64,000 bases of DNA from NCBI GenBank assembly GCA_001029795.1, contig CP011216.1, positions 499,580 through 563,579 on the forward strand, in the 5' to 3' direction. Made by a program: the position numbers and the translations under genes. Source of the stretch: a candidate division Kazan bacterium GW2011_GWA1_50_15. Its GTDB lineage: Bacteria > Patescibacteriota > Kazan-3B-28. Of the stretch, positions 16,271 through 63,696 are shown in pieces (within the stretch, counting starts at the first letter, position 1; every line of letters starts with the position of its first letter). The notes under the pieces were generated by a model, which was not told the DNA's origin, did not search any database, and saw only the letters and a list, made by a program, of their open reading frames with translations.

Positions 16271-16294
16271 AGCACTTGCACCTTGTAGTAGTCT

Positions 16295-16397: not shown

Positions 16398-16403
16398 AAA
16401 CTG

Positions 16404-37585: not shown

Positions 37586-37593
37586 ACGACCAC

Positions 37594-37728
37594 CTAGGCG
37601 CTTAAACGTTTACGCCCCTTGAGCCGACGACGCTTTAAAACTGCCCGACCATCTTTGGTCGACATCCTTTGGCGGAATCCGTGAACCTTCTGGCGTTTGC
37701 GCTTTTTGGGCTGGTAAGTCCTTTTCAT
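37594..37728 (-). CDS. rpmH: 50S ribosomal protein L34 (44 aa; absent from the ORF track because shorter than 60 aa)
   Basis: Manual minus-strand translation: [44 protein letters not shown]. Confidence 0.93.
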
Positions 37729-37858
37729 AGGAGATTTTTACCTATCCAGTATAGCGATTGCCGCTACCCGTGGCAATGGAGGAGTCAGACGAGTACACAA
37801 ATGGGGATAACTCTGGTAAATTGAAGTGTGCGTACCGGGGGAGTAATCAAGTTCGGCT
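37729..37858. other. oriC-proximal region (rpmH-dnaA intergenic) with a DnaA-box-like tGGGGATAA at 37802-37810
   Basis: Conserved rpmH/dnaA synteny. Strand switch of gene orientation at this point. Confidence 0.6.
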
Positions 37859-39226: not shown

Positions 39227-39386
39227 TGGGGATTACCCCTGGGAGGGGAGAAGTTATCCACAGCTTATCCCCAACTTAGCCCCAATCCACCCACAAAGCG
39301 GTTTTTAAAAAACCACCTCCACAAACTATAATTTAAGTAGTCCCCAAAACCAACAACTCTATAATCACTACTAATTCTCTACTCTT
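39227..39386. other. Putative oriC core (dnaA-dnaN intergenic): clustered DnaA boxes plus AT-rich unwinding element
   Basis: Perfect TTATCCACA at 39254-39262, TTATCCCCA at 39266-39274, ATCCACCCA and an inverted TGGGGATTA nearby. AT-rich 39300-39386. Confidence 0.7.
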
Positions 39387-40514
39387 ATGAATGAAGAAAT
39401 TTCTATAAAAGAGGGTGTGGATATCTCAGTTTCTGTGGTGCTGGATAAAATCAAAGGAGCTCTACAGGGAGTAGAACGAGTGGTGAGTAGCCGGAGTACT
39501 TTACCCATTTTGAATAATGTATTGATCAGGACATCAAAGAATGGGGTTGAGGTTATGGCAACGGATTTGGAAATTGGACTCAGGTTTTTCTTGGGTGGGA
39601 AAGTAGAGCGAGAGGGGGTGATCACGGTTCCAGGGAGGACGCTGGTTAGTTTGGTGAATAGTCTACACGGCGACACGTTATCTTTAGAGAGTAAGGGAAA
39701 TATTTTACAGGTGTCCTGCGGGGAAACTAGAGCGAGTATTAATGGAATGCCCGCCGATGATTTCCCGGTCATTCCCGAGGTAGAGGGTGGGAAGGTGGTT
39801 AAGGTTAAATCCGAACAATTTAAAAACCTTCTGTCTCAAGTTGATTTTGCGGCTTCTGGTGAAGATTCTCGGCCAGTGTTGACCGGGGTATACCTTATTT
39901 ATGACGGGGGTACGTTGACGGCGGTAGCTACTGATAGTTATCGGTTGTCGGAGGCGATGGCCAAAGATAAGCTCGGTGAAGACTTCAATGTTATTATCCC
40001 AGCTAGGACTTTGCAGGAGGTGCGCCGGCTAGTTGGAGAAGCGGCCGAGTTTGAGTTGCGGATCGGTGAAAACCAGATCATGGTAATAACTGACAGCGCT
40101 ACCTTGGTTTCTAGGATCATTGAGGGTGAGTATCCTAACTACAAACAGATCATCCCGCCAACTAGCGAGACCACGATCGAGATGGATGTGCAGGAGTTTA
40201 GCGATGCCATCAAAACTGCGGCTATTTTTTCCATGGAGGGTTCGAACACGGTGCGGCTGAATGTAGCGGCGAGTGGACTGGTTGAGGTGGTATCGGAGTC
40301 GTCTCAAGTTGGGAACTTTACTTCCAAGCTCAAAGCTGAGGTGAAAGGCCCGGGCGGCGAAATATCCTTCAACGCCAAGTATCTGCTGGATGGGATGAAT
40401 AGTTTTGACACTCCTAGATTCACGCTTGGTATGACTGGTAAAACCGCAGCTGGGGTATTCCGCCCGAGTGGGGTAGAGGATCGGCTTTACTTAGTGATGC
40501 CCTTGAGGAGCTAG
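39387..40514 (+). CDS. dnaN: DNA polymerase III beta sliding clamp
   Basis: Three-domain DnaN. Position after dnaA. Confidence 0.93.
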   Translation: MNEEISIKEGVDISVSVVLDKIKGALQGVERVVSSRSTLPILNNVLIRTSKNGVEVMATDLEIGLRFFLGGKVEREGVITVPGRTLVSLVNSLHGDTLSLESKGNILQVSCGETRASINGMPADDFPVIPEVEGGKVVKVKSEQFKNLLSQVDFAASGEDSRPVLTGVYLIYDGGTLTAVATDSYRLSEAMAKDKLGEDFNVIIPARTLQEVRRLVGEAAEFELRIGENQIMVITDSATLVSRIIEGEYPNYKQIIPPTSETTIEMDVQEFSDAIKTAAIFSMEGSNTVRLNVAASGLVEVVSESSQVGNFTSKLKAEVKGPGGEISFNAKYLLDGMNSFDTPRFTLGMTGKTAAGVFRPSGVEDRLYLVMPLRS

Positions 40515-40518
40515 TCTA

Positions 40519-41643
40519 GTGCGTGTTGTCGCCCTCCGGCTTAATCACTTTCGGAACCTAAGTGGGCTTGACCTGTCCAGTTTGGGGCGGGCGAATGTTT
40601 TGGTGGGCAAGAATGCGCAAGGGAAGACCAATATTCTGGAGGCCATCTTTATCGCTGCCTCGGGCGAGTCGTTCCGGATGACGCAGGATAGATATTTAGT
40701 CCAAAAAGGTGAGGTGGACGCACAGGTGTTTATGGAGACGGTGACGGATGATGAGCGCGAGAAGTTCGTCCAGTTGTTTTGGGTGGTGGACGGCGAGACG
40801 GTGTCGAAATCTGTGAAACTCAATGCGCTGGTGGTGCCGCGGGCCGACTTGGTTAAAACTATCCCGGTGGTTATTTTTTCGCCGGAAGACATCGACTTGG
40901 TGCGGTTGAGCCCCAGTCATCGGCGGAAGTTTTTGAATCTGGCTATTGCTCGGCATGACGCCGAGTATCGTCAGGACCTGATGGAGTATACCCGCATCTG
41001 GCGCCAACGCAACCAACTACTCCTGCTCATCAAACAGGGGCGGGAGGCGGAGGAGGAGCTGGATGTGTGGGACAACCAGCTAGCCGAAGCCGGCGCTCGG
41101 ATAGTTCGCAAGCGGGCGGACTTTGTCTCGGATATCGCCAGGGAAGTGGGGGAGCACTATAAAACATTTGTCCCTAACGGCAATGGGGCCGAACTGCGCT
41201 TGAAGTATCAGCCCAGCATCGGCCTGCCGAACAAAAACGAATATTTAGAGTACCTGCGCCGGGTGCGGCGGTTAGACATCGCGCGGGTGACCACTACGCA
41301 TGGTATCCACCGAGACGATCTGATGTTTATTTTGAACGACAGTGATGTCCGTTATACCGCCTCGCGCGGGGAGTTCCGCAGCGCGGTGCTGGCGCTGAAG
41401 CTGGCCGAGGGGAAATATCTGCATGACAAACTCGGCGATCGGCCGGTATTTTTGCTGGATGACGCCTTTTCTGAATTAGATGACGATCGCAAGGTGGCGT
41501 TGGCGGAGGAGATCAAACGCTACCAAGTATTTGTCACCACCAACGATGCCAACATCGCCACCCTGTTCGAGCGGCCAAGGACTTATGAGGTGATAAAAGG
41601 CGCCGTAGTTGGGTCGGTGGAGGAGACGGTTAAAGGGGACTAA
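40519..41643 (+). CDS. recF: DNA replication/repair protein RecF
   Basis: Walker A GKNAQGKTN and SMC-like signature. Position after dnaN. Confidence 0.93.
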   Translation: MRVVALRLNHFRNLSGLDLSSLGRANVLVGKNAQGKTNILEAIFIAASGESFRMTQDRYLVQKGEVDAQVFMETVTDDEREKFVQLFWVVDGETVSKSVKLNALVVPRADLVKTIPVVIFSPEDIDLVRLSPSHRRKFLNLAIARHDAEYRQDLMEYTRIWRQRNQLLLLIKQGREAEEELDVWDNQLAEAGARIVRKRADFVSDIAREVGEHYKTFVPNGNGAELRLKYQPSIGLPNKNEYLEYLRRVRRLDIARVTTTHGIHRDDLMFILNDSDVRYTASRGEFRSAVLALKLAEGKYLHDKLGDRPVFLLDDAFSELDDDRKVALAEEIKRYQVFVTTNDANIATLFERPRTYEVIKGAVVGSVEETVKGD

Positions 41644-42695: not shown

Positions 42696-43172
42696 TCAGG
42701 CATTTTCTTTCTTATTAAAGTCGTACCGCAGGAGGATGGTGGGCTGGCGCTGACCGTCGAAGGTCCACTCGTGCTGTTGAGGAGAGCGAAGCTTATCGTT
42801 GTTGCTGATGGCTTGGCCATCGCCGATATAAAAGCCGGTGTGTTTGTGGGGGCCGTCGGTGTATTGGACTTCGTCCCAGACGACGACATCGCCGGCTTCG
42901 GGGCTGTTTAAGTCGGCCTCGGACCAGCCAACCTCCCTCATATGCTTAACGGTATTATCTACGGTGGCGTGGCCCTCGCCTATCAGGCCGTACATCGCCA
43001 AGATGCCGGAGACGAAGGCGGCGCAGGAGAGGTCACCGTTTTTCAGCGCGTCGAACTCCTTGCCGTCCTGCTCGACATAGAGGTTGCGGAAGAGGGGAAC
43101 GCCAATAGCATTTCTTATAGTTTGGAGAAGAGACTTCTTGAGCAGGAGGCGGGGTTTGGGTTGGTCGGTCAT
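42696..43172 (-). CDS. NlpC/P60-CHAP-like papain-fold hydrolase (putative)
   Basis: Cys (DLSCAAF) then His (HTGFYIGDG) in the canonical order. Confidence 0.5.
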   Translation of the reverse strand: MTDQPKPRLLLKKSLLQTIRNAIGVPLFRNLYVEQDGKEFDALKNGDLSCAAFVSGILAMYGLIGEGHATVDNTVKHMREVGWSEADLNSPEAGDVVVWDEVQYTDGPHKHTGFYIGDGQAISNNDKLRSPQQHEWTFDGQRQPTILLRYDFNKKENA

Positions 43173-50374: not shown

Positions 50375-52513
50375 ATGGACAAGACATTTGACTTCAAAAA
50401 TCTAGAACCGAAACTCTATGACTTGTGGGAAAAGTCGGGGGGTTTTACGCCCAAGATGGTGGTCGGCCAGAAGCCGTACACCATCATCATGCCACCGCCT
50501 AATGCCAATGCCAGCCTGCACATTGGGCACGCACTCTTTGTGACGGTTGAGGATATTATGGTGCGGTATCATCGGATGAAGGGAGAGCCAACGCTGTGGC
50601 TACCCGGGGCGGACCATGCCGGTATCGCTACGCAGGTGTCATTTGAAAAAGAACTGACCAAGAGGGGTTTGACCCGCTTTGATTTGGGGCGGGAGGAGTT
50701 CGTGAAACAGACCTGCGCCTTCACGATGAAAAATCGGGCGACGATGGAAGACCAGCTGCGTCGGCTGGGGGCGAGCTGTGACTGGACCCGCAAAAAGTTC
50801 ACTCTCGACCCGGATGTAAGCGAGGCGGTCTTCACCACTTTTAAGAAAATGTATGACGAGGGGCTGATCTACCGCGGGGAGCGGATCATTAACTGGTGCC
50901 CGCGGTGTGCTACCTCACTCTCCGACCTGGAGGTGGAACACAAAGAAACTGAGGGGACGCTGACCTACATCAAATACCCATTGGTGGGCGGTCGCCGACC
51001 CAGAGGGTCATCTGACCCGGAGGGCAAGTTTATCGTGGTTGCCACTACCCGCCCGGAGACAATGTTGGGCGACACGGCGGTGGCGGTGAACCCGGCCGAT
51101 AAACGTTATGTCAAGTTGGTGGGTAAGAAAGTCGCATTACCGCTGACTGACCGCGAAATACCTGTCATCGTGGACGAGGCGGTGGATATGAGATTTGGCA
51201 CTGGCGCGGTGAAGGTGACCCCGGCTCACGACCCGACCGACTTTGAAATTGGCCAGCGACACAAACTGCCGAGCATCGTGGTGATCGGGCAGGATTTGAA
51301 GATGACGGAGGCCGCTGGCAAGTACACTGGGTTGAAGGTGAAGGCGGCGCGGGAGCAGGTGCTAGCCGATCTGCAGACGGCGGGGCTCATTGAAAAGACG
51401 GCCGCGCACTCGCATAATGTGGGTCACTGCCAGCGGTGCGACACGGCGGTAGAGCCGATGCTCTCCAAACAGTGGTTCGTGAAGATGGCGCCCTTGGCGG
51501 GACCCGCCAAGGCGGCGGTGAAGAGTGGCCAGATCAAGTTCATCCCCGAGCACTTCGAGAAGCTTTACTTTAACTGGATGGAGAATATCCGCGACTGGAA
51601 CATCAGCCGGCAGCTGTGGTGGGGACATCAGGTACCGGTCTATTACGCCAAAGACTACCCTGACAAGATGGCGGTAGCCGCGACTAAGGGCGAGGCCGAA
51701 AAAGCGCTGGGCGGCGAAGTGGCGCAGGACCCGGATACTCTGGATACTTGGTTCTCGTCCGGGCTATGGCCATTCACGACGCTGGGCTGGCCAAAGGTTA
51801 CAGATGACTTTAAATATTTTTACCCCACAACCATGATGGAAACGGGCTGGGACATTATCTTTTTCTGGGTAGCTCGGATGATCATGCTGGGACTATATTG
51901 TACCGGCCAAGCGCCGTTCGAGTTGGTCTATATGAACGGGCTGGTGCGCGATAAGGAAGGCAACAAGATATCCAAATCCAAGGGCAATGTCATCGACCCG
52001 ATGGTAATGGTGGACAAGTACGGCGCCGATGCTCTGCGGATGGGGCTGGTAGCGGGCACAGCGGCCGGGAACGATACGGCGATGTCGGAGGATAAGGTGC
52101 GGGCCTACCGCAACTTTGCCAACAAGATATGGAATGCGGCCCGGTTCATTAATTTGGAGGTGAGCGCGCCCAAGGATATCGGCGCGGTGGAGCTAACGAG
52201 CGAGGACAAGGCCTGGCTGAAGGAGTTTGATGCGGTGAGTGCGGAGGTGACTAAGTTGATGGATAAGTACCAGCTGGGTCAGGCGGCCGAGAAGCTCTAC
52301 GACTACTTCTGGCACACCTTCTGTGACAAATGTATTGAAGTAGCCAAACCGCGGTTGCAGGACATGGCCCAAAAAGACATCGCCGCGGCGGTCTTAAACT
52401 ACATTCTGAAAAACTGCCTCATTATGCTTCATCCCTTTGTGCCGTTTGTGACGGAAGCCGTCTGGAAAAATCTCTACGAGGGTGATTTGATTTCGACCAA
52501 GCGGTCGTCGTAG
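50375..52513 (+). CDS. valS: Valine--tRNA ligase, C-terminally short (712 aa; ends about 22 aa after the HPFVPF motif)
   Basis: HIGH (PNANASLHIGHAL) and KMSKS (KISKSKGN) motifs plus the ValS editing domain. Stop codon abuts repeat copy 2. Confidence 0.9.
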   Translation: MDKTFDFKNLEPKLYDLWEKSGGFTPKMVVGQKPYTIIMPPPNANASLHIGHALFVTVEDIMVRYHRMKGEPTLWLPGADHAGIATQVSFEKELTKRGLTRFDLGREEFVKQTCAFTMKNRATMEDQLRRLGASCDWTRKKFTLDPDVSEAVFTTFKKMYDEGLIYRGERIINWCPRCATSLSDLEVEHKETEGTLTYIKYPLVGGRRPRGSSDPEGKFIVVATTRPETMLGDTAVAVNPADKRYVKLVGKKVALPLTDREIPVIVDEAVDMRFGTGAVKVTPAHDPTDFEIGQRHKLPSIVVIGQDLKMTEAAGKYTGLKVKAAREQVLADLQTAGLIEKTAAHSHNVGHCQRCDTAVEPMLSKQWFVKMAPLAGPAKAAVKSGQIKFIPEHFEKLYFNWMENIRDWNISRQLWWGHQVPVYYAKDYPDKMAVAATKGEAEKALGGEVAQDPDTLDTWFSSGLWPFTTLGWPKVTDDFKYFYPTTMMETGWDIIFFWVARMIMLGLYCTGQAPFELVYMNGLVRDKEGNKISKSKGNVIDPMVMVDKYGADALRMGLVAGTAAGNDTAMSEDKVRAYRNFANKIWNAARFINLEVSAPKDIGAVELTSEDKAWLKEFDAVSAEVTKLMDKYQLGQAAEKLYDYFWHTFCDKCIEVAKPRLQDMAQKDIAAAVLNYILKNCLIMLHPFVPFVTEAVWKNLYEGDLISTKRSS

Positions 52514-52727
52514 CCGAGCGCGAAACGGCGCTCGACCCGTTGCCACTTTTGTCTTGCCAAAAGTGGCCAAAAGCGTGGCCCGGTAGCTCCGGGCTTATTC
52601 GTTGGTAAAATTATCTTTCCGCTTACAGCCAAACTCCCCCTCGGCTACGCTCGGGGTCAAACAGTGGCTCCGCGGCGATAATTTTACTCAACTCAGAACA
52701 ACCCTCCGCTAATGGGCCGGTGAAGGC
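52510..52727. repeat. Copy 2 of the roughly 200-nt structured intergenic element (paralog of 45378-45575); fills the whole spacer between convergent valS and the downstream minus-strand gene
   Basis: Same hairpin series as copy 1, including a compensatory 1-bp extension of hairpin 2 (gccactttt/aaaagtggc). A third hairpin gcccgg-tagct-ccgggc followed by TTATTCGTT is terminator-like on the plus strand. Confidence 0.6.
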
Positions 52728-53459
52728 CTATCCACCATACCCAGGGAGAATGGAGGGCAAATTGTAAGTTGTGCCGGCCGGGTTGCCGCCAGTTGCTTGG
52801 CTGACGTACTGGGGGCGGGCGACTTTGACGACTCCGCCGGACGGGAACTCCATTAAAACCCAAGTTTTGGTCTCGGCGACTATTTCGGCGTTGTAGTTGG
52901 TTTGGTAGTTGACGATGGCACCGGCGTCTTGAACGGGGGCATAGGCCAGCCGGTCCTGGAGCCAGGCCGTTTCATCGCCGGTTTTGGTATTGAAACTGCG
53001 GATAGTATCACCGGGGAAAATCACTAAGACATTGGCGCCTTTTTGATACCAAGCTCGGCCGCCGTCTTGGTAGGCGTAAGCGAGGTCGCTGCCCTCGGGC
53101 GGCAACACCCCCGCCAAAGCGGATGGCTGGTAGGTGCTTGTCCCAGGCTGGTCGCTTAAAAAGTAGTTGCCAGAGTTGGCGGTCGGGGATGCGGCTGGAC
53201 GATAAACCAGACCAATGATACCTTGGGTATCCTGGCTAATTTCGGCTGGGTTGCTCGGCAGGTTAATACCCACAAAGCCGGGAGTTGGGTTGGGACCACC
53301 GAGCGCGTCCGCGGGCATACTCTGCAGGATTGAGCTGAGCCAGCTATTCGATTCTGACCGCGCCGGTTCTGGCTGGGAGCTTTTAACCATCGGTAAAACT
53401 TCGGCAAAGACTAGGCCGAGCAGAATAAAGAGAGCGAAAAGGTTACGAAGTTTAGTCAT
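52728..53459 (-). CDS. Secreted hypothetical protein (243 aa), signal peptide, Pro/Gly/Ser-rich
   Basis: N-terminal MTKLRNLFALFILLGLVFA signal. Lies distal to the T4SS-like operon. Confidence 0.6.
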   Translation of the reverse strand: MTKLRNLFALFILLGLVFAEVLPMVKSSQPEPARSESNSWLSSILQSMPADALGGPNPTPGFVGINLPSNPAEISQDTQGIIGLVYRPAASPTANSGNYFLSDQPGTSTYQPSALAGVLPPEGSDLAYAYQDGGRAWYQKGANVLVIFPGDTIRSFNTKTGDETAWLQDRLAYAPVQDAGAIVNYQTNYNAEIVAETKTWVLMEFPSGGVVKVARPQYVSQATGGNPAGTTYNLPSILPGYGG

Positions 53460-53515
53460 AAAACAAGCGGATGGGACCGCTTCCTTTTCACCTGTTCTTA
53501 TTATACCGCACTAGG

Positions 53516-55156
53516 TCATTCGGCGATAACCCGCCAAAGCTCTTCTAGGGTGGTAATGCCGGCTAGGACCTTGGCAACTCCGTCTTGGGCGAGGGTGGTC
53601 ATCCCTTGGCTTTGGGCAAGAGCCTGAATTTCGTGCGCGGGGGCACTGCTCATGATCTTGACCTTAATCTCAGGGGTGATCTCAAGTAGTTCAAATATGC
53701 CGACGCGGCCCTGATAACCAGTACCGTTGCATTTATCACAAGCCTTGGCGATTGGGAGGGTAGCGGGGATCTGAGCATCGGGCAAGATAGACTTGATCTT
53801 GGCTTGAGCCGCCTCGTCCGGCGCGGCCGAAGCCTTGCAGTTAGGACAGACCTTGCGGACCAATCGTTGAGCGATGATAAGTCTCAACGCATCGGAAAAC
53901 AACTGGGGCTTGGCCCCTAGGTCAATAAGCCGAGGTACGGCGCCAGCTGCATCGTTGGTGTGCAGGGTGGATAACACTAGGTGCCCCGTAAGGGAAGCAT
54001 TCACAGCGATATCGGCGGTCTCGCTGTCACGAATCTCTCCGACTAGGATGACGTCCGGATCTTGGCGGACGATCGCTCGCAGGGCGTTGGCAAAATCGTA
54101 GTGTTCTTCTGGGTTGACCTGAGTTTGAGTCACTCCTTGTAGACGGTACTCGATCGGGTCTTCGACGGTGATGATCTTGGTGGTAGGCGAGTTGATAGTG
54201 TTCAAGACGGCGTAGAGAGTAGTGGTCTTACCAGAGCCAGTGGGGCCGGTGTTGAGAATAAGCCCATTTGGTTCGTGGATCGATCGATCGATCACTTGAC
54301 GGTCGTGAGAACTCAGCCCTAACTCATCTAGACTTACGAATTTGCCTTCCTGGGGGAGCAGGCGCATGACGATCGACTCGCCGTATTGGGTGGGCAGGAT
54401 CGAAACTCGGATATCATACCGGCTCGCGCCAGCAGTAATCGAAAACCGACCGTCCTGCGAACTCTCGGTGATGTTGAGTTTCAGCGCCGCCATCAGCTTG
54501 ATGCGGTCCACTACTGCTCCTTGAGCTGAGGTGGGCAAAGTAGCAATATCCTGCAGCACTCCATCTAACCGATAACGAAGCCGTAAGTCGGTTTGGGTGG
54601 GCTCAATGTGGATGTCGGAAGCCTTCAAACCAGTGGCCCCGGCCAAAATAGTGGTGAGTAGCTCGCTAGTGGAGGTGCTAGTGAGTTTAGCTTGAAATTC
54701 TGTCAGATCATTAAGCTTGGGGATGGTCTGCGGTCCAGAAGTGTCGATAGTGATCTCGTGGGAGTGATCGGCTGCTGGGGCGAAGGTGTCGTATACTCCC
54801 AAGAGATAGCGCATAGATGACTCGGATACCAAAACGGGGTGGAACTGATACTCATCCATAGCCGCCAGGTGCTTTAAAGCAGTGACGGTTGCGGGGTTAT
54901 TGGGATCACTCAGGGCTAGTAAGATCTTGGTCCCAGCTTTCTCAAAAGCGAAGACATGACCAGACTGAACCATATCTCTAGGGACGAGGGCGACTGCGGC
55001 TGGATCGGGTTGGAAGCCAGCTAGATTACGATATTCAAGACCCAATTTATCAGCCTGAATTTTGGTCAGTTCTTCTTCTTTGGCGCGGTGGAGATTTTTA
55101 ACCGCCTGTTCCAACGGGGCTTTGTCGCCATCTGGTTTTGGGGTTGAGTTAACCAT
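53516..55156 (-). CDS. pilB: GspE/PilB family secretion ATPase with N-terminal T2SE_N domain and tetracysteine zinc motif
   Basis: Walker A GPTGSGKTTT, Asp/His boxes, CPNC...CDKC. An N-domain is present, so a VirB11-type ATPase is unlikely. Confidence 0.9.
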   Translation of the reverse strand: MVNSTPKPDGDKAPLEQAVKNLHRAKEEELTKIQADKLGLEYRNLAGFQPDPAAVALVPRDMVQSGHVFAFEKAGTKILLALSDPNNPATVTALKHLAAMDEYQFHPVLVSESSMRYLLGVYDTFAPAADHSHEITIDTSGPQTIPKLNDLTEFQAKLTSTSTSELLTTILAGATGLKASDIHIEPTQTDLRLRYRLDGVLQDIATLPTSAQGAVVDRIKLMAALKLNITESSQDGRFSITAGASRYDIRVSILPTQYGESIVMRLLPQEGKFVSLDELGLSSHDRQVIDRSIHEPNGLILNTGPTGSGKTTTLYAVLNTINSPTTKIITVEDPIEYRLQGVTQTQVNPEEHYDFANALRAIVRQDPDVILVGEIRDSETADIAVNASLTGHLVLSTLHTNDAAGAVPRLIDLGAKPQLFSDALRLIIAQRLVRKVCPNCKASAAPDEAAQAKIKSILPDAQIPATLPIAKACDKCNGTGYQGRVGIFELLEITPEIKVKIMSSAPAHEIQALAQSQGMTTLAQDGVAKVLAGITTLEELWRVIAE

Positions 55157-55158
55157 AT

Positions 55159-56082
55159 TTATTGAGTAACCAGCGGATGGGCCACTACTATCGCTTTATC
55201 GGTGGTGCCTTCGAGAGGGAAGTGTTCTAGCCTGACGCGAGCAATGTTTTCCCATAAGCCCACCTCTTCCACTGTAGCAGAAACCCCAAAGGTCAGAGTG
55301 ACAACCGGGTTACTAGAGTAGACGTCAATTCGGTAATCGCCCATCCAGCCAGCGATCCTCTGGGGCTGGCCGCTTTGCCCATAGATGATATAGTAGCTGC
55401 CCTGAACGGGTTTCAGCCCGTTCGGGAAGAGATCATCCACGATAAATGTAGCCAGTTTGGCTGGCAGAGAACCAAAGTCAGCGCCAGGCGGGAGGATGAC
55501 CCCTACACTAACATCGACCTTGAAGTCGACTTGCGTCTGGTGGTCGGCGTAGGCTTCGACCGAATGGACATAACTGCCGTCTGGAGCCAATCTAACCTGT
55601 TTGGTGAGGCCATAAACGTATTTGAGGCCCTCGGGTTTTTCTTCGGTCGGGATGGCAGGGGTGAGGATACCGCCGCTATTGGGGTCGGTCGGATCAGTGC
55701 CGAGAATCACCTCTATACCGTCAGCTACCCCGTCGCCGTCAGTGTCTGGGTTAGTGGGGTCGGTGCCGGTATCCTCCGGGTTAGTGGGGTCGAATACACC
55801 GGTACCCGTCTCGGTGCTGTTGGGAAGCCCGTCGTTGTCATGGTCACCTGGGCCAGTAACTTTAGGGCTAATAAAGTCAGTCGTCTCGCCTGGGATATCG
55901 GGGATATCGTGGGCGGGGTTGTTAAGTTCGGCGTCCCGCTCCGCCAAGGTGCGAGTACCCCAACGCTCTTCGATACCGGAGGTCTCTCTAATAAAAGTAG
56001 CCCCGGCCGAGGCAATGATAAGAATGCCGACAGCGGCGGCACCCACAGTAATGGCCAAACCAGTCCCGGCCCCAATACGCAT
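55159..56082 (-). CDS. Membrane-anchored protein with thrombospondin type-3-like calcium-binding repeats (DxDxDG) and an unknown C-terminal domain
   Basis: N-terminal TM. DHDNDGLPN / DTDGDGVADGIE repeats. Confidence 0.6.
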   Translation of the reverse strand: MRIGAGTGLAITVGAAAVGILIIASAGATFIRETSGIEERWGTRTLAERDAELNNPAHDIPDIPGETTDFISPKVTGPGDHDNDGLPNSTETGTGVFDPTNPEDTGTDPTNPDTDGDGVADGIEVILGTDPTDPNSGGILTPAIPTEEKPEGLKYVYGLTKQVRLAPDGSYVHSVEAYADHQTQVDFKVDVSVGVILPPGADFGSLPAKLATFIVDDLFPNGLKPVQGSYYIIYGQSGQPQRIAGWMGDYRIDVYSSNPVVTLTFGVSATVEEVGLWENIARVRLEHFPLEGTTDKAIVVAHPLVTQ

Positions 56083-56085
56083 GAC

Positions 56086-57876
56086 TTAGCCTCCTGTTAG
56101 ATTACGCAGTTCAGCGAGCTGGGCTGGGTCAGAGGTCACGATCTTGTCTTCCACGTAGCTAGCAACTACCTTGATAGCGGCATGGCTGGTGCCGGCAAAA
56201 AATAGACCCTCCCCAACCTCGGCTTCTAGGAGCAGGAACTTCTCGCCTTGGGTCAGGTTGAAGGTTTCAGTGACCACATCAATGGAGGCTGGTGACTGGC
56301 GGAAGAGAAGCTGTAGGGAAGAGTTGGCCACCACAGCTTTACCGTACTTGGAACCGAGAAAGTCCTCGACATCCTGGGTGATGGTGGTGAGACCCAGGTA
56401 ATACTTACGGGCCCGCTTGGCGATCGAGTACAGAAATTTGGCGGAGTCCTCGTACTGCATCAAGATCCAGGCCTCGTCGATTACAAGGATCCGCTTCTTT
56501 ACATCGAAACGGATCTTGTTCCAAATGTAGTTGAGAACGATGTACATAGCGATGGGGCGCAGAACGTCTTCCAGGTCGCGGATGTTAAAGACCATAAGGC
56601 CAGTGTCTAATTCAAAGTTGGTGGGCTGGTTGAAAATACCGGCGAAGGTCCCCCGGGTGTATTTGCTAAGCCGCTGTGATAGGCTCTCGGCGCCCTGCAT
56701 ATTGTCCAAGACATTTTGCAGATCCTCCATGGTCGGCATGGGGTTGGCGTGGGTTTTAACGTCATCGGTGATATCTTTGAGAGCGTAAGTTTCGCGGATG
56801 GCTTTATCCATCAATGCGTCCTCTTCGGGAGTCAAAGTCCCCACGAGCAGGTTCATCAGCCCCAAGAGTGTAACAATGGCTGAGCGCAAAACCTTTTCGC
56901 CCTCGGCGTTGGGTCCCAATTTCGGTAGATCAAATGGGTTAATCCGCTTGTCGCTATTAAGGGAGATAGAGATGTAGCTGCCGCCGGCGGCCTTGGCCAG
57001 CGCTTCATACTCGTTTTCCGGGTCGATGACGATGGCGTCAACTCCGAACATGGCGCTGCGCAGGATCTCTAGTTTGACGGCGTAGGATTTACCACCTCCA
57101 GACTTGGAGAAGACGGCCATATTGGCGTTTTCTAGGTCAAAGCGGTCAAATAGGATGAGCGAGTTGTTGTGACGGTTGATGCCGTACAAGACACCCTTGC
57201 CGGTGGTGAGGTCCACCGAGGTGAAGGGGAAGGTGGTAGCTAAGCTTGAGGTGGTCATGTTGCGGACGATGTCCAGTTCGTCCAGCCCCAGCGGCAGCGC
57301 CGAATTGAAGCCCTGCTCCATCTGTAGGAGCGCATGTTTAGTGTAGACCAACTGCCCACCGAGCGTGGTTTCGATGTGCTGGGTGATGGACTCCAGCTCC
57401 TGCTCAGTCTTAGCGTAGATAGTAAAATAGAGAGCGTAGTGAAAGAACTTTTCGATACCGCGCTGCAGGCGGTCGCGGAGCTCCTCAGCATCTTGGTAAG
57501 ATATCTCCAGCTCAGGGTCGCGGATGGCTCCTTTTTCTTGATTGATACGCAAACTTGCCTCCATCTCGGTTACCTTGCGGCGCAAAGTTTTCATAATGGC
57601 GGAGCTGTCTACAGGCATGATATGCATGGAGATGTCTAAATTGACATCGTAGTTGATGACTGGAGACAGCCAGTTGGTCTCGATGTATTGCGGGTAGGTC
57701 AGGACGAACAGCGACCGAACAAAACGGCCGTTGAGCATAAGATGATCGTTGCTGATCTCCAAAGCGGCGGGGGCGACTAGGTCGCGGACGGAGACTAGGC
57801 CGGCCTCGAACTGTTCCACGGCTTTGCGAGCCGAGGCTTCATCAGAGTTAACTGATTTTCTTTTAAACCAGGCCAT
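56086..57876 (-). CDS. virB4: VirB4/TraC/PrgJ family type IV secretion ATPase (C-terminal about 600 aa portion)
   Basis: Walker A SKSGGGKSY, Walker B ILVIDEAW and VirB4 N-domain-like region. Confidence 0.88.
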   Translation of the reverse strand: MAWFKRKSVNSDEASARKAVEQFEAGLVSVRDLVAPAALEISNDHLMLNGRFVRSLFVLTYPQYIETNWLSPVINYDVNLDISMHIMPVDSSAIMKTLRRKVTEMEASLRINQEKGAIRDPELEISYQDAEELRDRLQRGIEKFFHYALYFTIYAKTEQELESITQHIETTLGGQLVYTKHALLQMEQGFNSALPLGLDELDIVRNMTTSSLATTFPFTSVDLTTGKGVLYGINRHNNSLILFDRFDLENANMAVFSKSGGGKSYAVKLEILRSAMFGVDAIVIDPENEYEALAKAAGGSYISISLNSDKRINPFDLPKLGPNAEGEKVLRSAIVTLLGLMNLLVGTLTPEEDALMDKAIRETYALKDITDDVKTHANPMPTMEDLQNVLDNMQGAESLSQRLSKYTRGTFAGIFNQPTNFELDTGLMVFNIRDLEDVLRPIAMYIVLNYIWNKIRFDVKKRILVIDEAWILMQYEDSAKFLYSIAKRARKYYLGLTTITQDVEDFLGSKYGKAVVANSSLQLLFRQSPASIDVVTETFNLTQGEKFLLLEAEVGEGLFFAGTSHAAIKVVASYVEDKIVTSDPAQLAELRNLTGG

Positions 57877-57878
57877 AA

Positions 57879-58565
57879 TTATTGCCCCTGTTGGGCTTCT
57901 TTAATATTCTGGATAACTGATGCGTCTACGTTGCTGACCGAAAAAAGTTTCTGCCGGCGAGCAGTGTCGGGGTTGTAGGTTGAATAGAACAATTCGATCA
58001 GTTCCTGGGTGTTGAGCTGAACATTATGCAAGCCCAACCCGGCTAGGCCGGATGAAACTAAACTGGTCCGCTCTAGTAACTTGGTTTTGATCTCCGCGAA
58101 TCGGCCCCCAGTGGTGATCGGGCCGGACTTCTTGCCGAACAGTTTGCCCAAGAACCCGCCGGAGGGAGCCTCGAACCCAGTGTCATAAGGGATCACGATA
58201 TAAAAAGTTTTGCTCATAATGTTGGCCACGCCGATCAGCTCGCGGACAAAGCCGGTGTATTCGGCGGTCTGAGTGCGCAAGAGTTCATTGGTCTGTTCCC
58301 TGGCCAAGGTATCAAGCTGGGCCAGATATTTATCTAGATCGAGGGTGCGGGACTGTACGACGATCTGGATGGGGAATCCCAAACCGTTCAGGAATTCCTG
58401 GTACTGCCCCAAAAGTGCTTCCTGTTCATCGCGAGATTTAAGATTAAAGTTAATTGCGTTGGCCATCAGGACGGTGCGAAAACCGCCGGTCTTTAAGACA
58501 ACGATCCCATCACGGACTTCTTTGATGGGTAGGAACTTTTGTGTACTGTTGGACTTTTTGGCCAT
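57879..58565 (-). CDS. Hypothetical soluble protein (228 aa) resembling the extreme N-terminal segment of VirB4/TraC proteins; possible split-off VirB4 N-domain
   Basis: DGIVVLKTGGFRTVLMANAINFNLKSRDEQEALLGQYQEFLNGLGFPIQIVVQSR pattern. Stop TAA then TT then ATG of virB4. Confidence 0.45.
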   Translation of the reverse strand: MAKKSNSTQKFLPIKEVRDGIVVLKTGGFRTVLMANAINFNLKSRDEQEALLGQYQEFLNGLGFPIQIVVQSRTLDLDKYLAQLDTLAREQTNELLRTQTAEYTGFVRELIGVANIMSKTFYIVIPYDTGFEAPSGGFLGKLFGKKSGPITTGGRFAEIKTKLLERTSLVSSGLAGLGLHNVQLNTQELIELFYSTYNPDTARRQKLFSVSNVDASVIQNIKEAQQGQ

Positions 58566-58567
58566 GG

Positions 58568-59116
58568 TTAGTCGGTGTCAGTTAGAATATCTTCAACATC
58601 CAAACCGGCCTCGCTAACCGAGGAGCGGTTGGGGTTGAGGTTGTTGATCTGCGTAGTAACGGCATCCTGATCTTCTGCTCTCATTGTACCACCCGTATCT
58701 AAGAGGTGAGACAGTTTTTCAAGCTGAGTTTTAAGTTCGCCACCGCTTTGACGTTCGCGGACTTCGCTTTTAGTATCTTTGATGTCGCTGGCTTGGACTT
58801 TGATCGCCTGAACTAGTTGACGCGGCTCTTTGTGCCAGACAGCCTGCTTAGGCGACGTCCAAAAATGCCATAACTGCAATGCGAACAGGCCGAACGGACG
58901 ACCATTGATCTGAATAAAGGCTAATGACACGCTTAAGGCCACCGCTACTAAACTGATCAGTACGAACTCGGTGAAATAGAGGTACTTCCGAGTGTAGTAT
59001 TGATAGGCGATAAAGACGAGTGCGGCTCCGCCGAGAACGTAGAGGAACTGTTTCAGGGTCAGCGGACCGATCAAACGGTCTTCGCGGGTAACATCTTGTG
59101 GAATTTTGGCGGCCAT
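58568..59116 (-). CDS. PrgI family protein (VirB3-like small T4SS membrane protein)
   Basis: MAAKIPQDVTREDRLIGPLTLKQFLYVLGGAALVF N-terminal signature plus 2 TM helices. Confidence 0.75.
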   Translation of the reverse strand: MAAKIPQDVTREDRLIGPLTLKQFLYVLGGAALVFIAYQYYTRKYLYFTEFVLISLVAVALSVSLAFIQINGRPFGLFALQLWHFWTSPKQAVWHKEPRQLVQAIKVQASDIKDTKSEVRERQSGGELKTQLEKLSHLLDTGGTMRAEDQDAVTTQINNLNPNRSSVSEAGLDVEDILTDTD

Positions 59117-59118
59117 AA

Positions 59119-62052
59119 TTACGGTTTAATATTGTTGGTAGCAGAAGCACCCCGAGCCAAGTGGTCCAGGGCGTCAGCTAGGCTTAACTCGCCAGCTTGG
59201 GTTGGGTCTTGCAAGTCTTTCTTGCCAACTCCAAAGTTGGTCAAGTTAGTCCGCTTAGCCCAGTCAGCGACTTTGTTACCTAGACCCAGGGACTCAACTT
59301 TGATCTTAGTTTCGTCGCCCCCGGCGGCTGTCCCTGCCCGGCGCAGTTCGTTCATCAGGCCAAGTGATTCAGTCCGAACCTCCTGCTGGGCGGCTGTCCC
59401 GGTAACTGTAGCGCCAGCGGTAGTAACAAATCCCGATTTAACCACCTCGGTTAACGTGTTCTCATAAGACGGGTGCCCTGAAGCTGACTGGAGAATATCA
59501 ACAGTTAACGTATCGATGGTGCGCTGTTGGGTGGCTTGCTGTTGGGCGAGAGCAGCCGCTTGGCGTTTAGCCGCATCGGCACCAATAGTCTTGGTAGCAT
59601 ATTCTGATAGTTGTGCGGCTAGAGCTGGGTTAGCCATCCCCTCGGCGATCGGTGCGCCTTGGGTGCGGATAGTAGCTAGCGGAATACCGTTCCTGTGGAC
59701 TAGAAGCTTAGCAGCGGCATCAGCTGAACCTTGGAAGTTAGCAAAGCTTAACAGGCCCTCGATATCATGTACTTTTTGGGCCTCATCTAGATTGGGGTTG
59801 GCGGCGATACGCTCGATCTGTCCATAGACATTTTTATTTGTTCCCGAGAAAGCGCTCAGAGCGGCTATCCCACTGCTTCCCAGGTTGGTGACAGAGTCAC
59901 GGAAGTCGGCGTCGTTGGCGATAGCATCGAGTACTTTGGGGTCAGCTGAACGGATAGCTAGGGCGGCTTGCTGCCCGGCGCCGCCTAATCGGTTAAGACT
60001 GTTAGCTAGGTTACCTAACTCTGCACTCAGCGAAGCGATATTGGTTTGACTGGCGGCTAACCGGGCGTTGGTTTGAGCAATCTCGGTTTCAGCTGCAGTT
60101 AATTGGCGCTGGGAGTGTAGGGTAGTCCGCTTGGCTTCGAGGTCGGCGGCTCTCTTTTCATCTTTGGCTGAAATGGCAAACGGTTTTTTGGGCATGTATT
60201 GATAACCGGCACCGGTAGTTAGGTTGCTAACCAGGTCGTAGAAGTCGGAGTCTTCTAAAAGGGGATTCAGCATTTTGCGCCAGTTATACTTGTCCACCCC
60301 AGTCCCTGCTTGTTTGAGGGCCCGCGTCACTTTACGGCTAAGCTCTCGGGCAGTATCAGTAGAGACACGGCCAGTGGCAACCCGTTCAGCCTCAGCTCGT
60401 TTGCGCACATCAGCGATGGATGCCTCCATGGCTTCGGGCCCGAGGGCAATACTGTCTTCTAGCTCAGAGTCATCCTTGGCGATACTGTTTTTGATAGCGT
60501 TAGCCCAGTTGCGGCTGGATGCCAAACCAGGGTTTTGTTTATCGAATTGTAGTTCTAGGGCAGACTTTTGAGCAACATCTAAGTCGTCAATTGATGTTAC
60601 GCCGTACCGCTTGTAGCCTTCAATGGCCATGAATTCATCTAGCTTTCGTTGGCGGTTAGATAAGATGACGTTGGCCTGCGGGAGAAGCTGCTCATTGACG
60701 GCTCTACCCGTAGCAACCTTATTGGCTTTCTTGGCTGCTTCCAGCTGCGCATCTAATTTAGCGCCGGCAATCTCGGCTTGGCGCAATGGCCCACCCAACT
60801 TTGAACCCTTGAGCTTTTCAACGCCAAGCTGCCAGTATTTACCGATAGTGCTAGACGCGCTTTTGCCGGCCAGTTGGAACGGTTTGTCGATCATGTCGCC
60901 CATCCATTTAGTAGCGGCGCTTAACGGCACGTCCAGCATCTTGGGCGTGTTGGCAGCAGCGATCATCACGGCTACCATCACAATGATGTACATAATCATC
61001 CCGGCATCCAGTCCAGCCGCGGCGCTGTTGTCACCAAATTTAAACAGAGCGACTAGTTGCTCGGAGACTGAACTGCCAGGAGCATTGGGGCGGAGTAGAT
61101 TAGCTACTCCGAGCAGCAGAAAGGAGATCGGGAGAACTAAGATCCATTTGATTAAGTTGGTCCACCACCGGCTAGCATAGCTGGATAGGTCCTTGTGCGG
61201 CAGTAAGCCGAGTGCGAAGTAGAAGGGAGCGAAGATAGTCAGCAGGATGATCTGGATGGCCCGTTCGGTCATGACGGCCACGATCCGGAAGAGGGCATAG
61301 GTGGTCACTATAGCGATAATAAGGATGACTAGCGATAGACCAATGTAGCCGTAGATGCTCATTTTTGGGTCGAAGATGACCCCACCAGAAAAGAGGGTGA
61401 GCAAGTCTTGGTAGAGGATGTCGATCTGGGATGGTTGGAAGCCAAACACTGTGCTAGCTGAGTTTTTCAGGGCGTCACCCGCTTCAATAAATACCCAAAC
61501 TAACTGGTAACTTAAATTAGCCAACACTACTGCGGTGACCAGGCCGGTGATAGCCTTCTTGAAGTTGTACCCGCCCGAGCGGGTGATGATCATAATAGCG
61601 AAGATCGCTAAGGCCAAGAAGAAGAGTACATTGGCGGCGGAGCGCATCGCCCCCCACGCCTGCAGAACGGCAGGGGAACCCAGTACACCATTCTGGCCCT
61701 TAAGAATAACCTCGTTCAGGATCCAAAGCAGAAGAGCGTTGATCATCCCCAAAAGCGCCTCGAGACCGTAAACCAGAGCACCAACGATGGCTTTAAGGGT
61801 GGACTCGGCTAGCCAACTTACAGCCTGTAGACCGCCAGAGGGGTCCAACAGACGTTTTAACCAATCCGGGATGAATAGGGCAGAGCTACTGGTGTATTGG
61901 CCCGGGATAAGCTGAGCGTGGGCGATCAAAGGTACACCAACTAGTACAGCGATGGCTAACAGGGAGACAATCAACATCAACCGCCCGCGCGGTTTATCTA
62001 GAAATCGTTTAATTAGCTGGGACCAATTTTTCATTTTTATTTTGGTGGCCAA
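59119..62052 (-). CDS. Large VirB6/TrbL-like polytopic T4SS membrane protein (977 aa) with a roughly 550-aa Ala/Gln-rich predicted coiled-coil C-terminal domain
   Basis: Signal peptide plus about 8 TM helices in the first 420 aa. Long low-complexity C-terminal domain. First gene of the operon. Confidence 0.6.
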   Translation of the reverse strand: MATKIKMKNWSQLIKRFLDKPRGRLMLIVSLLAIAVLVGVPLIAHAQLIPGQYTSSSALFIPDWLKRLLDPSGGLQAVSWLAESTLKAIVGALVYGLEALLGMINALLLWILNEVILKGQNGVLGSPAVLQAWGAMRSAANVLFFLALAIFAIMIITRSGGYNFKKAITGLVTAVVLANLSYQLVWVFIEAGDALKNSASTVFGFQPSQIDILYQDLLTLFSGGVIFDPKMSIYGYIGLSLVILIIAIVTTYALFRIVAVMTERAIQIILLTIFAPFYFALGLLPHKDLSSYASRWWTNLIKWILVLPISFLLLGVANLLRPNAPGSSVSEQLVALFKFGDNSAAAGLDAGMIMYIIVMVAVMIAAANTPKMLDVPLSAATKWMGDMIDKPFQLAGKSASSTIGKYWQLGVEKLKGSKLGGPLRQAEIAGAKLDAQLEAAKKANKVATGRAVNEQLLPQANVILSNRQRKLDEFMAIEGYKRYGVTSIDDLDVAQKSALELQFDKQNPGLASSRNWANAIKNSIAKDDSELEDSIALGPEAMEASIADVRKRAEAERVATGRVSTDTARELSRKVTRALKQAGTGVDKYNWRKMLNPLLEDSDFYDLVSNLTTGAGYQYMPKKPFAISAKDEKRAADLEAKRTTLHSQRQLTAAETEIAQTNARLAASQTNIASLSAELGNLANSLNRLGGAGQQAALAIRSADPKVLDAIANDADFRDSVTNLGSSGIAALSAFSGTNKNVYGQIERIAANPNLDEAQKVHDIEGLLSFANFQGSADAAAKLLVHRNGIPLATIRTQGAPIAEGMANPALAAQLSEYATKTIGADAAKRQAAALAQQQATQQRTIDTLTVDILQSASGHPSYENTLTEVVKSGFVTTAGATVTGTAAQQEVRTESLGLMNELRRAGTAAGGDETKIKVESLGLGNKVADWAKRTNLTNFGVGKKDLQDPTQAGELSLADALDHLARGASATNNIKP

Positions 62053-62184
62053 TCAGATATCGGGGTGCCGCAAGTAATTATTTAATTATAGCAAAAAACA
62101 GCGGATTAGTCAAGAGGGGATTAGAGCCGTCTGGGCAACGCCAGAAAGGCATACAGTAAGCCAGCTCCCCAGATGTAGCTTTAG

Positions 62185-62213
62185 TCAAAGGTCATAAAAT
62201 CGGGCATAATGAG
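62185..62213 (+). promoter_or_regulatory. Putative promoter TAGTCA-17-CATAAT in the divergent intergenic region
   Basis: Hexamers with 17-nt spacer upstream of gene 62254. Confidence 0.35.
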
Positions 62214-62253
62214 AGTGGTTTACAAAACGATCAAAAAATGATGTAATCCGTCA

Positions 62254-63696
62254 ATGGTAGACGAGCCGAAAAATCAGTCCCAGAGCAGTAAATCGCCACA
62301 AGAGGAGTTGGATGAACTACTGCGGCAGAGCCAAGTAACCCGGCCAACTTCTGGGATTAAATTGCCCGAAACTAGCCCGAACCGGGCCGCTAACTGGCTG
62401 GTGATAGGAATAGTTGGCCTAGCGGGTTTATTAGTAGTGGGGACTGGCTATGTGTTATTAAGCGGAGTCAAGTTCAACACTGCTCAGCTGGTGCTGGAGC
62501 TTAATACTGACCAGGTACAATTAACGGTGGACGATCATAGTGCCGGGACAGTTAACTCGGGGGATGTTTTGCGGGTGCGGGCTGGGCAGCATACATTGGT
62601 GGCGACCAAAGACGGTTTTTTGGATCTGCATGAACGAGTGGAACTGGCGCGCAATCAGCAGTTAACCGTTAATTTAGCATTATTACCCATCCCCGAGATA
62701 GAAACTGTGGTAGACCACCCCGTGGATTTTGCCAGGCTGAATCTAGATGGTTCGGAGATAGCCTATTTTGATGACGGAACAAAAACCTTTCAGGCGGTGA
62801 AGCTGGAAGATGGGTCTGTGGCCACCCTTTTTCGCGGTAGTTTTAGCGGGGTGCAGGATGTGGTCTGGTCTCCGGTGGGCCAGGCGGCGCTGGTCAAATT
62901 AGTCGGGCGGCCTACGCTGCCAAATACGTTAGACAACCGCAGTGTAAAGGGTCGCTATATCCCGCTGGGGACCCCGGGTGGCCGGCCAGACCAGGCCCCG
63001 GCTAAGTTTGGCGGGGTAAGCACTTGGCTATTTGACGATGACCGTAAACCCGCTGCTGGCTGGCAGCCGATCTTGCTGAACGATAGTATCTGCCAGGCAG
63101 CTTTCAATGCTGATGGTGGTTCCATTATCTATTTATATGACACGGCTAACGGCGAGTACTCGTTGGTGCAGGCTTGGCCAGATGGTTTGGAGTGGGAGCG
63201 GCTGATCGTCGAGATGCCGCGGTTTACCGATCCGCGGTTTAGCTGGGGGGCTGACGACAGGTACGTTCTGGTGCAGGATAACAACAAACTCAGTTTGTTG
63301 GATATGGTGGACAAGACTTTGTCAGAACCATTTCCTGACTATGTGGCGGGGAGCCAGCTCGCCGTCTCAACTGCGGGGGACAAGGTGGCCTATCTGGCTG
63401 ATGCGGATGGGGCGATTAAGCTGAAAATATATGACTTAGTGACTAGCACGGCCAAAGTTTTGGATACCCCGGCAGTCAGCGGCAAAACCAGTATGGTCTG
63501 GACGGGGACTGATAGTGTGATAGTGGCTTTGGATAATCAAACGTTCGAACTGATCGAGACTGACCAAGACGTTCATACCACCATCCCGTTCGTGGGTGCC
63601 AGCATTGATCTGCAAGTGCAGCGGATGGAATATAGCCTAGCCGCGAAAGTATTAATGTTAGTGACTGATCGGGGGGTGGCGATGATGAAGGTGTGA
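62254..63696 (+). CDS. Membrane-anchored protein with PEGA domain and TolB-like beta-propeller region
   Basis: N-terminal TM. PEGA-like LELNTDQVQLTVDDHSAGTVNSGDVLRVRAGQHTLVATKDGF. Repeated D-G-S/A blade-like motifs. Confidence 0.6.
   Translation: MVDEPKNQSQSSKSPQEELDELLRQSQVTRPTSGIKLPETSPNRAANWLVIGIVGLAGLLVVGTGYVLLSGVKFNTAQLVLELNTDQVQLTVDDHSAGTVNSGDVLRVRAGQHTLVATKDGFLDLHERVELARNQQLTVNLALLPIPEIETVVDHPVDFARLNLDGSEIAYFDDGTKTFQAVKLEDGSVATLFRGSFSGVQDVVWSPVGQAALVKLVGRPTLPNTLDNRSVKGRYIPLGTPGGRPDQAPAKFGGVSTWLFDDDRKPAAGWQPILLNDSICQAAFNADGGSIIYLYDTANGEYSLVQAWPDGLEWERLIVEMPRFTDPRFSWGADDRYVLVQDNNKLSLLDMVDKTLSEPFPDYVAGSQLAVSTAGDKVAYLADADGAIKLKIYDLVTSTAKVLDTPAVSGKTSMVWTGTDSVIVALDNQTFELIETDQDVHTTIPFVGASIDLQVQRMEYSLAAKVLMLVTDRGVAMMKV

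Follow-up and report, generated by a model that had tools for sequence, protein, structure and literature searches.

A probable Patescibacteria-type type IV secretion gene cluster near the replication origin of a Kazan bacterium carries a pilB gene in its predicted operon

The T4SS (type IV secretion system) of the Patescibacteria (candidate phyla radiation, CPR) is among a handful of machines that these ultra-small bacteria have been shown to require for their epibiotic lifestyle. The Saccharibacteria T4SS has been described as unusual, nearest to the conjugative systems of Gram-positive bacteria and furnished with pilins; it is without coupling and relaxase proteins and was found by transposon sequencing (Tn-seq) to be essential for epibiotic growth (Wang et al., 2023; PMC10633639). 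A later survey of 3,035 genomes detected VirB4 in 18 of 20 classes and showed that patescibacterial VirB4 forms one monophyletic, vertically inherited clade inside MPF_FATA (Quinonero-Coronel et al., 2025; PMC12102498). The commonest partner of virB4 in that survey was TrsD, followed by PrgI, VirB6 and arrays of VirB2-like pilins, with almost no relaxase, and the cluster often lay near dnaA/dnaN. Kazan-3B-28 genomes are tabulated there as VirB4-positive, and no report of a cultivated Kazan member was found in the literature cited here. We analysed a stretch of 64,000 nucleotides (the window) from the chromosome of candidate division Kazan bacterium GW2011_GWA1_50_15 (contig CP011216.1, positions 499,580 to 563,579), in which seven genes on the minus strand (52728-62052 of the window) make up a T4SS-like cluster that also contains a gene for a PilB-type ATPase.

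In Saccharibacteria the locus studied by experiment is that of Southlakia epibionticum. Its order is recF, SEML1_0004, SEML1_0005 (PEGA), SEML1_0006 (lysozyme-like), SEML1_0007, SEML1_0008 (VirB4), SEML1_0009 and SEML1_0010 (PrgI), followed by two VirB6-like proteins of ~1000 aa, six pilins, Hsp20 and comFC. Most of these genes were scored essential, and a PilB-type ATPase is absent (PMC10633639). The main text of the 2025 survey mentions VirB11 once, for an unrelated MPF_T system, and never T2SSE, PilB or GspE; in those parts of its supplements that were available to us, PilB/T2SSE, GspE, PEGA and SBP are not mentioned near virB4 (PMC12102498).

Comparison with these systems indicates that the cluster is probably the Kazan copy of the Patescibacteria-type T4SS, derived from MPF_FATA, of monoderm style and chromosomal near oriC, and that its PilB is most likely an ordinary pilus motor. 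The locus adds nothing categorically new; the Patescibacteria-type T4SS is already published (Wang et al., 2023; Quinonero-Coronel et al., 2025). It is a compact, well-delimited version of that system from a little-studied class, and the presence of pilB inside the T4SS operon is its only undescribed, lineage-specific feature. A first-pass annotation, made by reading the letters of the window, had proposed a chromosomal T4SS-like operon in a reduced-genome organism with a cell-contact or effector role rather than conjugation. The first part is borne out, and the second agrees with the published view of a host-interaction or effector-type function (PMC10633639, PMC12102498).

The seven genes are separated by 2, 2, 2, 3, 2 and 56 nt in the list of open reading frames (ORFs), exactly as first described. 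The outermost gene (59119-62052, minus strand) encodes a 977-aa protein starting at TTG; gene callers favour an ATG at 62034, which would give 971 aa. The protein has a signal/transmembrane (TM) helix and another ~6-7 TM helices as far as residue ~373, followed by ~600 C-terminal residues that are all-helical, alanine-rich and hydrophilic. Its direct Pfam match, to TrbL_4, was not significant (E 0.075), and a word-indexed homologue search with the N-terminal 438 aa gave no matches. Exhaustive HMMER searching with the N-terminal membrane domain recovered 2211 relatives, mostly of 600-1200 aa. PF04610 (TrbL/VirB6) was matched by 9 of 39 relatives sampled (best E 2e-9), and an AlphaFold2 (AF2) model built on the alignment of the HMMER relatives had a pLDDT of 85-97 across the TM domain. 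These results support, by an indirect route, an extended polytopic VirB6 homologue near virB4, and the initial VirB6/TrbL-like label is retained. The long coiled-coil tail ascribed to this protein was not confirmed, as no more than one stretch (655-689) had a heptad-like appearance.

The next gene (58568-59116, minus strand) encodes a 182-aa protein with 2 TM segments that matches the PrgI family above cutoff (PF12666, E 2.6e-10), in agreement with its earlier description as PrgI (VirB3-like). It is followed by a 228-aa ORF (57879-58565, minus strand), which stops 2 nt upstream of virB4 and corresponds to a detached VirB4 N-domain. The 228-aa protein matches the N-terminus of VirB4 models (NF045975 positions 99-233, E 2.4e-9; NF045971 positions 3-119), as well as TrsD (NF041427, E 6e-4) and the TraC-like family PF26593. 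The 596-aa VirB4 ATPase (56086-57876, minus strand) is itself without the N-domain and aligns to positions 176-730 of NF045971 with 392 bits (cutoff 325). It also matches P-loop_TraG (E 4.8e-23), and its translation contains the Walker A (GGGKS) and Walker B (VIDEAW) motifs; the closest solved structures were 4ag5 (E 5.9e-46) and TrwK (E 1e-9). By profile and similarity, this VirB4 is of an MPF_FATA-related type (CD1110 family).

Searching one genome per GTDB species yielded 594 VirB4 relatives, and the TrsD and PrgI counts given here rest on the best 80 of these 594, almost all of which are labelled Patescibacteria/CPR. A separate TrsD-like gene lay beside virB4 in 27 of the 80 loci, from genomes labelled Kazan-like, Berkelbacteria, Saccharibacteria and Paceibacteria, and a PrgI gene preceded TrsD-VirB4 in 26. 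The first-pass annotation had noted an apparently split VirB4. The N-domain protein and the ATPase are indeed separate, but this is no oddity: it is the ancestral, conserved TrsD+VirB4 arrangement of the Patescibacteria-type T4SS. An origin by frameshift or pseudogene formation was rejected because this arrangement is retained across classes.

Five Kazan-like loci (L001-L005), whose VirB4 proteins are 75-83% identical to that of the window, keep the whole gene order with similarly tight spacing. The order is PEGA, then VirB6-like, PrgI, TrsD, VirB4, a TM-anchored variable protein, PilB and a protein of 240 aa, then synthetase and TsaD. A search by PilB added two further Kazan-like contigs (orthologues of 52-53% identity), and these are collinear over the whole 20 kb, including FemAB, Mur ligase, SIMPL and PolA. 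In other classes, tblastn showed PrgI-TrsD-VirB4 in Saccharibacteria, Paceibacteria and Berkelbacteria, and VirB4 alone in Peregrinibacteria/Gracilibacteria. The Berkelbacteria locus L009 carries, in order, a 988-aa protein, PrgI, TrsD, VirB4, PEGA, SBP, five VirB2-like pilins, a convergent PilB and ComFC.

The T4SS of S. epibionticum and that of Kazan have in common a VirB4 with a separate TrsD-like protein, PrgI/VirB3, and an extended VirB6 of ~1000 aa with a helical C-terminal region. Both also have PEGA and VirB2-like pilins, carry Hsp20 and comFC at the locus edge, have no relaxase or coupling protein nearby and adjoin dnaA-dnaN-recF. However, the Kazan operon holds pilB and a Kazan-only gene, and a TSP3 gene occupies the place of the lysozyme-like SEML1_0006 and SEML1_0007. 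There are two Kazan pilins rather than six, ~5 kb from the core, and only one VirB6-like gene was seen. We also compared the cluster with Firmicutes MPF_FATA systems (TrsC-TrsD-TrsE of pGO1/pSK41; PrgH/PrgI/PrgJ of pCF10; the CD1110-type VirB4 of CTn2). Shared features are the VirB4 family NF045971, the TrsD+VirB4 split, PrgI, and a monoderm architecture without VirB7/9/10 or VirB11. Unlike these systems, the Kazan cluster is without relaxase, coupling protein, VirB8-like protein, VirB1-like hydrolase and PrgB-type adhesin, the Kazan genome has VirB2-like pilins, and the cluster is chromosomal and vertically inherited.

The genes dnaA-dnaN-recF lie at 37859-41643, and the sign of the GC skew flips near 36 kb, beside yidC/jag-like genes and dnaA-dnaN-recF (~36000-41643); together these mark the replication origin, which places the T4SS cluster 14-24 kb from dnaA/oriC. 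All non-cluster genes of the window with an assigned family are housekeeping genes, and the GC and GC3 of the cluster genes fall inside the housekeeping range. Relaxase, VirD4 and VirB8 were sought among window ORFs of at least 110 aa. Neither a relaxase nor a coupling protein (VirD4/TcpA) was matched among the window ORFs or in the 10-kb flanks, and no recognisable VirB8 was present in the ORF set, as the first-pass annotation had reported. The FtsK encoded at 11869-14112 is a genuine FtsK, since it carries the 4TM, alpha and gamma domains. The earlier statement that the window has no lytic transglycosylase holds for the cluster, but elsewhere in the window, far from the T4SS genes, 5060-5665 encodes an RlpA-like DPBB_1 protein and 42696-43172 a weak CHAP/NlpC-P60 protein.

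A VirB4 nearest to conjugative MPF_FATA ATPases, with no relaxase or VirD4 nearby, could also be read as what is left of a conjugative element that once integrated here and then decayed, with loss of its relaxase and coupling protein. We regard this as very improbable, because all ORFs are intact with their ATPase motifs present, composition is as in the housekeeping genes, and scans of the window for tRNA genes, and of its ORFs for integrase families, gave no match. An Rfam scan of the window was likewise without hits. Furthermore, the same housekeeping flanks occur in all Kazan-like genomes examined, with VirB4 identities of 75-83% in L001-L005, and patescibacterial VirB4 is a single vertically inherited clade (PMC12102498).

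We then looked for signals that would delimit the operon. A sigma-70-like promoter (62085-62113, minus strand) stands ahead of the 977-aa gene, with TTGACT, a 17-nt spacer and TG-TATAAT; it agrees with the consensus at 11 of 12 positions, has an extended -10 element and is the best site within 52400-62400. It probably acts as the operon promoter. At the other end, a GC-rich hairpin (52577-52595, strand unassigned) lies between the convergent 243-aa and aminoacyl-tRNA synthetase genes. Its stem has 7 pairs, of which 6 are G-C. As a pattern match and no more, it may be the operon's terminator; terminator-like hits in total were not above the shuffled expectation. The layout fits a single operon.

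Within this operon, the 546-aa ATPase (53516-55156, minus strand) begins 2 nt past the preceding cluster gene, with no strong promoter-like site ahead of it inside the operon. It matches T2SSE (E 1e-120) with an MshEN N-domain (E 1.3e-10), and the translation shows Walker A and B, the Asp and His boxes and a tetracysteine motif. Scores against the GspE and PilB models were 492 and 483 bits, both under the equivalog cutoffs; the VirB11 model TIGR02788 gave 51 bits (cutoff 250), over the core P-loop region only. Among solved structures, residues 25-544 align to PilB of Geobacter and Myxococcus and PilF of Thermus (E ~1e-112), whereas a GspE structure aligns from residue 162 only and VirB11 is absent at E 1e-20. 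The full-length PilB/PilF match, together with a VirB11 score far under cutoff, indicates that the protein, judged by its sequence, is a bona fide, full-length PilB of the type IVa pilus (T4aP). It shares with T4aP PilB/PilF (Geobacter metallireducens 5TSG/5ZFR/6OLJ, Myxococcus 3JC8, Thermus 6F8L) its full length, MshEN domain, core motifs and tetracysteine, but its gene has none of pilC, pilM and pilT as neighbours and lies in an operon with T4SS genes. VirB11 of MPF_T systems belongs to the same secretion-ATPase superfamily, and PilB is the only cytoplasmic hexameric ATPase besides VirB4 encoded with the Kazan T4SS genes; however, VirB11 is a two-domain protein of ~330 aa, and the Kazan protein exceeds this by ~200 aa and carries both an MshEN domain and a zinc motif. 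The first-pass annotation had called this a GspE/PilB-type ATPase rather than VirB11. The family assignment stands, but there was no VirB11 for PilB to replace, because MPF_FATA-type systems are without VirB11.

The position of pilB raises the question of whether PilB is a working part of the T4SS in Kazan and Berkelbacteria, either partnering VirB4 in the manner of VirB11 or driving extension of a VirB2-like pilus, in a hybrid of T4SS and type IV pilus (T4P). The 2-nt junction and the lack of a strong promoter-like site ahead of pilB speak for such a machine, as do the superfamily shared by PilB and VirB11 and the occurrence of pilB in this position in all 7 Kazan-like loci examined, with PilB identity down to 52%. 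The whole 30-kb region is collinear in Kazan-like genomes, though, including synthetase, TsaD, FemAB, Mur ligase, SIMPL and PolA, and since housekeeping genes keep their places too, the conserved adjacency of pilB says little about function. Among 28 virB4 loci outside Kazan that had flanks of 9 kb or more in each direction, only 1 carries a PilB homologue, and the essential T4SS locus of S. epibionticum is without such an ATPase. The Kazan protein has kept MshEN and the tetracysteine and aligns end to end with T4aP PilB, and T4P machinery genes are reported to be conserved in most Patescibacteria classes; Kazan is not mentioned in the supplements of the two-pili paper. In addition, a Moranbacteria PilB homologue (45% identity; L087 10001-12551) stands alone, without pilC, near Fpg, PolA and RuvB, and Fpg and PolA also lie within ~12 kb of pilB in the Kazan window. 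Because the Moranbacteria pilB is likewise beside Fpg and PolA without pilC, this suggests that the origin-proximal position of pilB is old and unrelated to the T4SS. Taken together, we consider a hybrid machine unlikely. The single machine with mixed T4SS and T4P ATPases envisaged at first pass is therefore not upheld, given a full-length T4aP PilB whose adjacency is confined to Kazan-like genomes that are collinear throughout.

Several points weigh against an ordinary pilus motor beside a Patescibacteria-type T4SS. In the 64-kb window and 10 kb per side, which make up ~84 kb or ~14% of the genome (LCQY01000001.1, 601,557 bp), Pfam and prepilin-motif scans found no gene for PilC, PilM/N/O, PilT, PilD or a prepilin; in the window and in L081, which covers the same genome past the window end, the class III (prepilin) signal motif matched once, by chance, within a short ORF. 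That the Kazan genome encodes a separate type IV pilus elsewhere is thus assumed. In Berkelbacteria L009 a PilB homologue lies within 5 kb of virB4 and abuts the VirB2-like pilin array, in another gene order, which hints that the association of PilB with the T4SS may exceed drift. Neither a VirB8-like nor a VirB1-like part was identified inside the cluster. Finally, we infer co-transcription of the cluster genes, and we infer the function and substrate of the Kazan system by analogy.

Linkage of T4SS genes to a PilB-family ATPase is also known from the IncI R64 thin pilus, PAPI-1 and the Ced + Ups pili of Sulfolobales, in which the pilus is thought to give cell contact and the T4SS to transfer the substrate. 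Those are systems of DNA transfer or import with full pilus sets, whereas Kazan shows the ATPase gene only and no DNA-processing genes. If Kazan genomes do lack PilC and prepilins, this would be a strong lead for a hybrid secretion/pilus motor, and such a T4SS/T4P machine would operate in a genome of ~0.6 Mb, possibly without a separate type IV pilus; if PilC and prepilins are present, the arrangement would be routine co-expression of attachment and secretion genes. As a separate observation, Moranbacteria PilB homologues (P0002-P0004, P0065 and similar) are 850-940 aa long with two T2SSE matches each, perhaps owing to an intein or to duplication within the gene.

The cluster is flanked by further genes that recur around virB4. 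Divergent from the operon, on the plus strand, 62254-63696 encodes a TM-anchored protein (TM 44-72) with a PEGA match just under cutoff (E 0.0013). This gene is kept at the same position in Kazan-like loci, a PEGA protein follows virB4 directly in Berkelbacteria L009, and the PEGA protein SEML1_0005 flanking the T4SS genes of S. epibionticum was scored essential. The divergent PEGA protein is a probable accessory component of the system. Past it, the gene order is a 661-aa and a 160-aa protein without Pfam match, dCMP deaminase, two VirB2-like pilins, an SBP_bac_1 lipoprotein, nucleotidyl transferase, Hsp20, a SpoIID-domain protein and a ComFC-like gene, with the pilins, SBP gene and comFC 5-9 kb past the window end. 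The tandem pilin genes (PF18895; 109 and 113 aa; L081 15041-15747) lie ~5 kb past the end, so their apparent absence was a window-edge effect. The same edge effect accounts in part for the impression of a minimal apparatus, which is not supported: pilins, SBP, Hsp20, SpoIID and comFC lie past 64000. In several classes, virB4 is repeatedly accompanied by ComFC, VirB2-like pilins, a PEGA protein and an SBP-family lipoprotein, a recurrent accessory set.

By the preferred reading, the membrane translocon would consist of the extended VirB6, the VirB3-like PrgI and a VirB4 that is divided between a TrsD-like N-domain protein and the ATPase. By analogy with Saccharibacteria, VirB4/TrsD docked to PrgI and VirB6 would assemble a VirB2-like pilus or conduit, and this conduit may mediate contact-dependent exchange of protein or another substrate with a host bacterium rather than relaxase-driven conjugation. 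PilB would most likely drive the extension of a type IV pilus that has its remaining components encoded elsewhere, and a shared transcript would co-express attachment and secretion functions.

The ComFC-like gene bears on a different main role, DNA uptake of a ComB- or Ced-like kind, in which the system, with PilB pili, ComFC and ComEC, would import host DNA as a nucleotide source. This gene (Pribosyltran and zinc ribbon; L081 20821-21441) lies a few kb from the pilins and is 35% identical to that of Berkelbacteria. A comFC gene is similarly placed in L009 (18958-19584), in five Saccharibacteria loci (L062, L070, L072, L079, L080) and in S. epibionticum, where the equivalent is SEML1_0021 and Hsp20 also recurs at the locus edge. 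Moreover, comEC lies just outside the window, comF, recG and radA occur near virB4 in class ABY1, and archaeal Ced DNA import needs T4P (as cited in PMC12102498). In S. epibionticum, however, deletion of comEC is viable while T4SS genes are essential, so the essential role of the T4SS is not ComEC-dependent competence; comFC is non-essential there as well, and the Kazan operon encodes no DNA-binding or DNA-processing protein. We therefore hold DNA uptake as the main role to be quite unlikely. To the left of the window, where YceG is also found, comEC consists of two adjacent ORFs (L088 11774-14057, ~1.2-3.5 kb before window position 1), one with DUF4131 and Competence domains (482 aa) and one with Lactamase_B (271 aa); with its domains on two adjacent ORFs, the competence channel is present in the Kazan genome, but split.

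The fifth gene of the operon (55159-56082, minus strand) encodes a 307-aa predicted surface protein with TSP3 repeats, as first described (TSP3_bac, E 4e-7), and with a membrane anchor (TM 3-32). Its N-terminal TM helix is followed by a conserved RETSGIEERW motif next to the membrane, by Ca-binding TSP3 repeats (NPDTDGDG) and a linker rich in Pro, and by a C-terminal domain that varies. All 7 Kazan-like loci have positional homologues (280-460 aa) with a conserved N-terminus and a variable C-terminal part, and the latter is duplicated in L002 and L003. This is the pattern that would be expected of a surface or host-contact protein.

The last gene (52728-53459, minus strand) encodes a 243-aa exported or membrane-anchored protein (VE98_C0001G0554) found only in Kazan-like genomes. 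It has an N-terminal helix, a disordered linker and a conserved C-terminal alpha/beta domain of ~95 aa, with AF2 pLDDT >90 over residues 120-215, and no match in Pfam or NCBIfam. A search of 5.8 billion proteins gave 28 homologues, and all those with a lineage name are Kazan. A structure search of the PDB, made to look for a hidden VirB8/NTF2-like part, gave no convincing match (best VOC/FosB-like, TM ~0.2); no such resemblance was detected, and the domain is left without an assigned fold.

Other genes near the system showed recurrent features. The 661-aa and 160-aa membrane proteins (L081 11448-14056), which have no family match, are kept in L002, L003, L005, L085 and L086 and may be further parts of the system. 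The SBP_bac_1/8-family lipoprotein (L081 15744-17096, ~5.5-6.8 kb past the window end) adjoins the VirB2-like pilin genes and is orthologous to the SBP protein beside the Berkelbacteria pilins (L009 13347-14825; 26% identity, E 2e-52). Three Gracilibacteria loci (L039, L054, L063) also have SBP homologues no more than 10 kb from virB4, and the 2025 survey does not take up an SBP-family neighbour of the T4SS in its main text (PMC12102498).

Elsewhere in the window, three consecutive plus-strand ORFs without Pfam match (14283-17657) encode a 390-aa protein with a signal/TM segment, a membrane-embedded protein of 289 aa and a highly charged, helical-looking protein of 423 aa. The class I aminoacyl-tRNA synthetase adjoining the cluster (50375-52513) has 712 aa, which is short for a Val/Leu/Ile-type enzyme, and its relatives are of similar length (706-709 aa).

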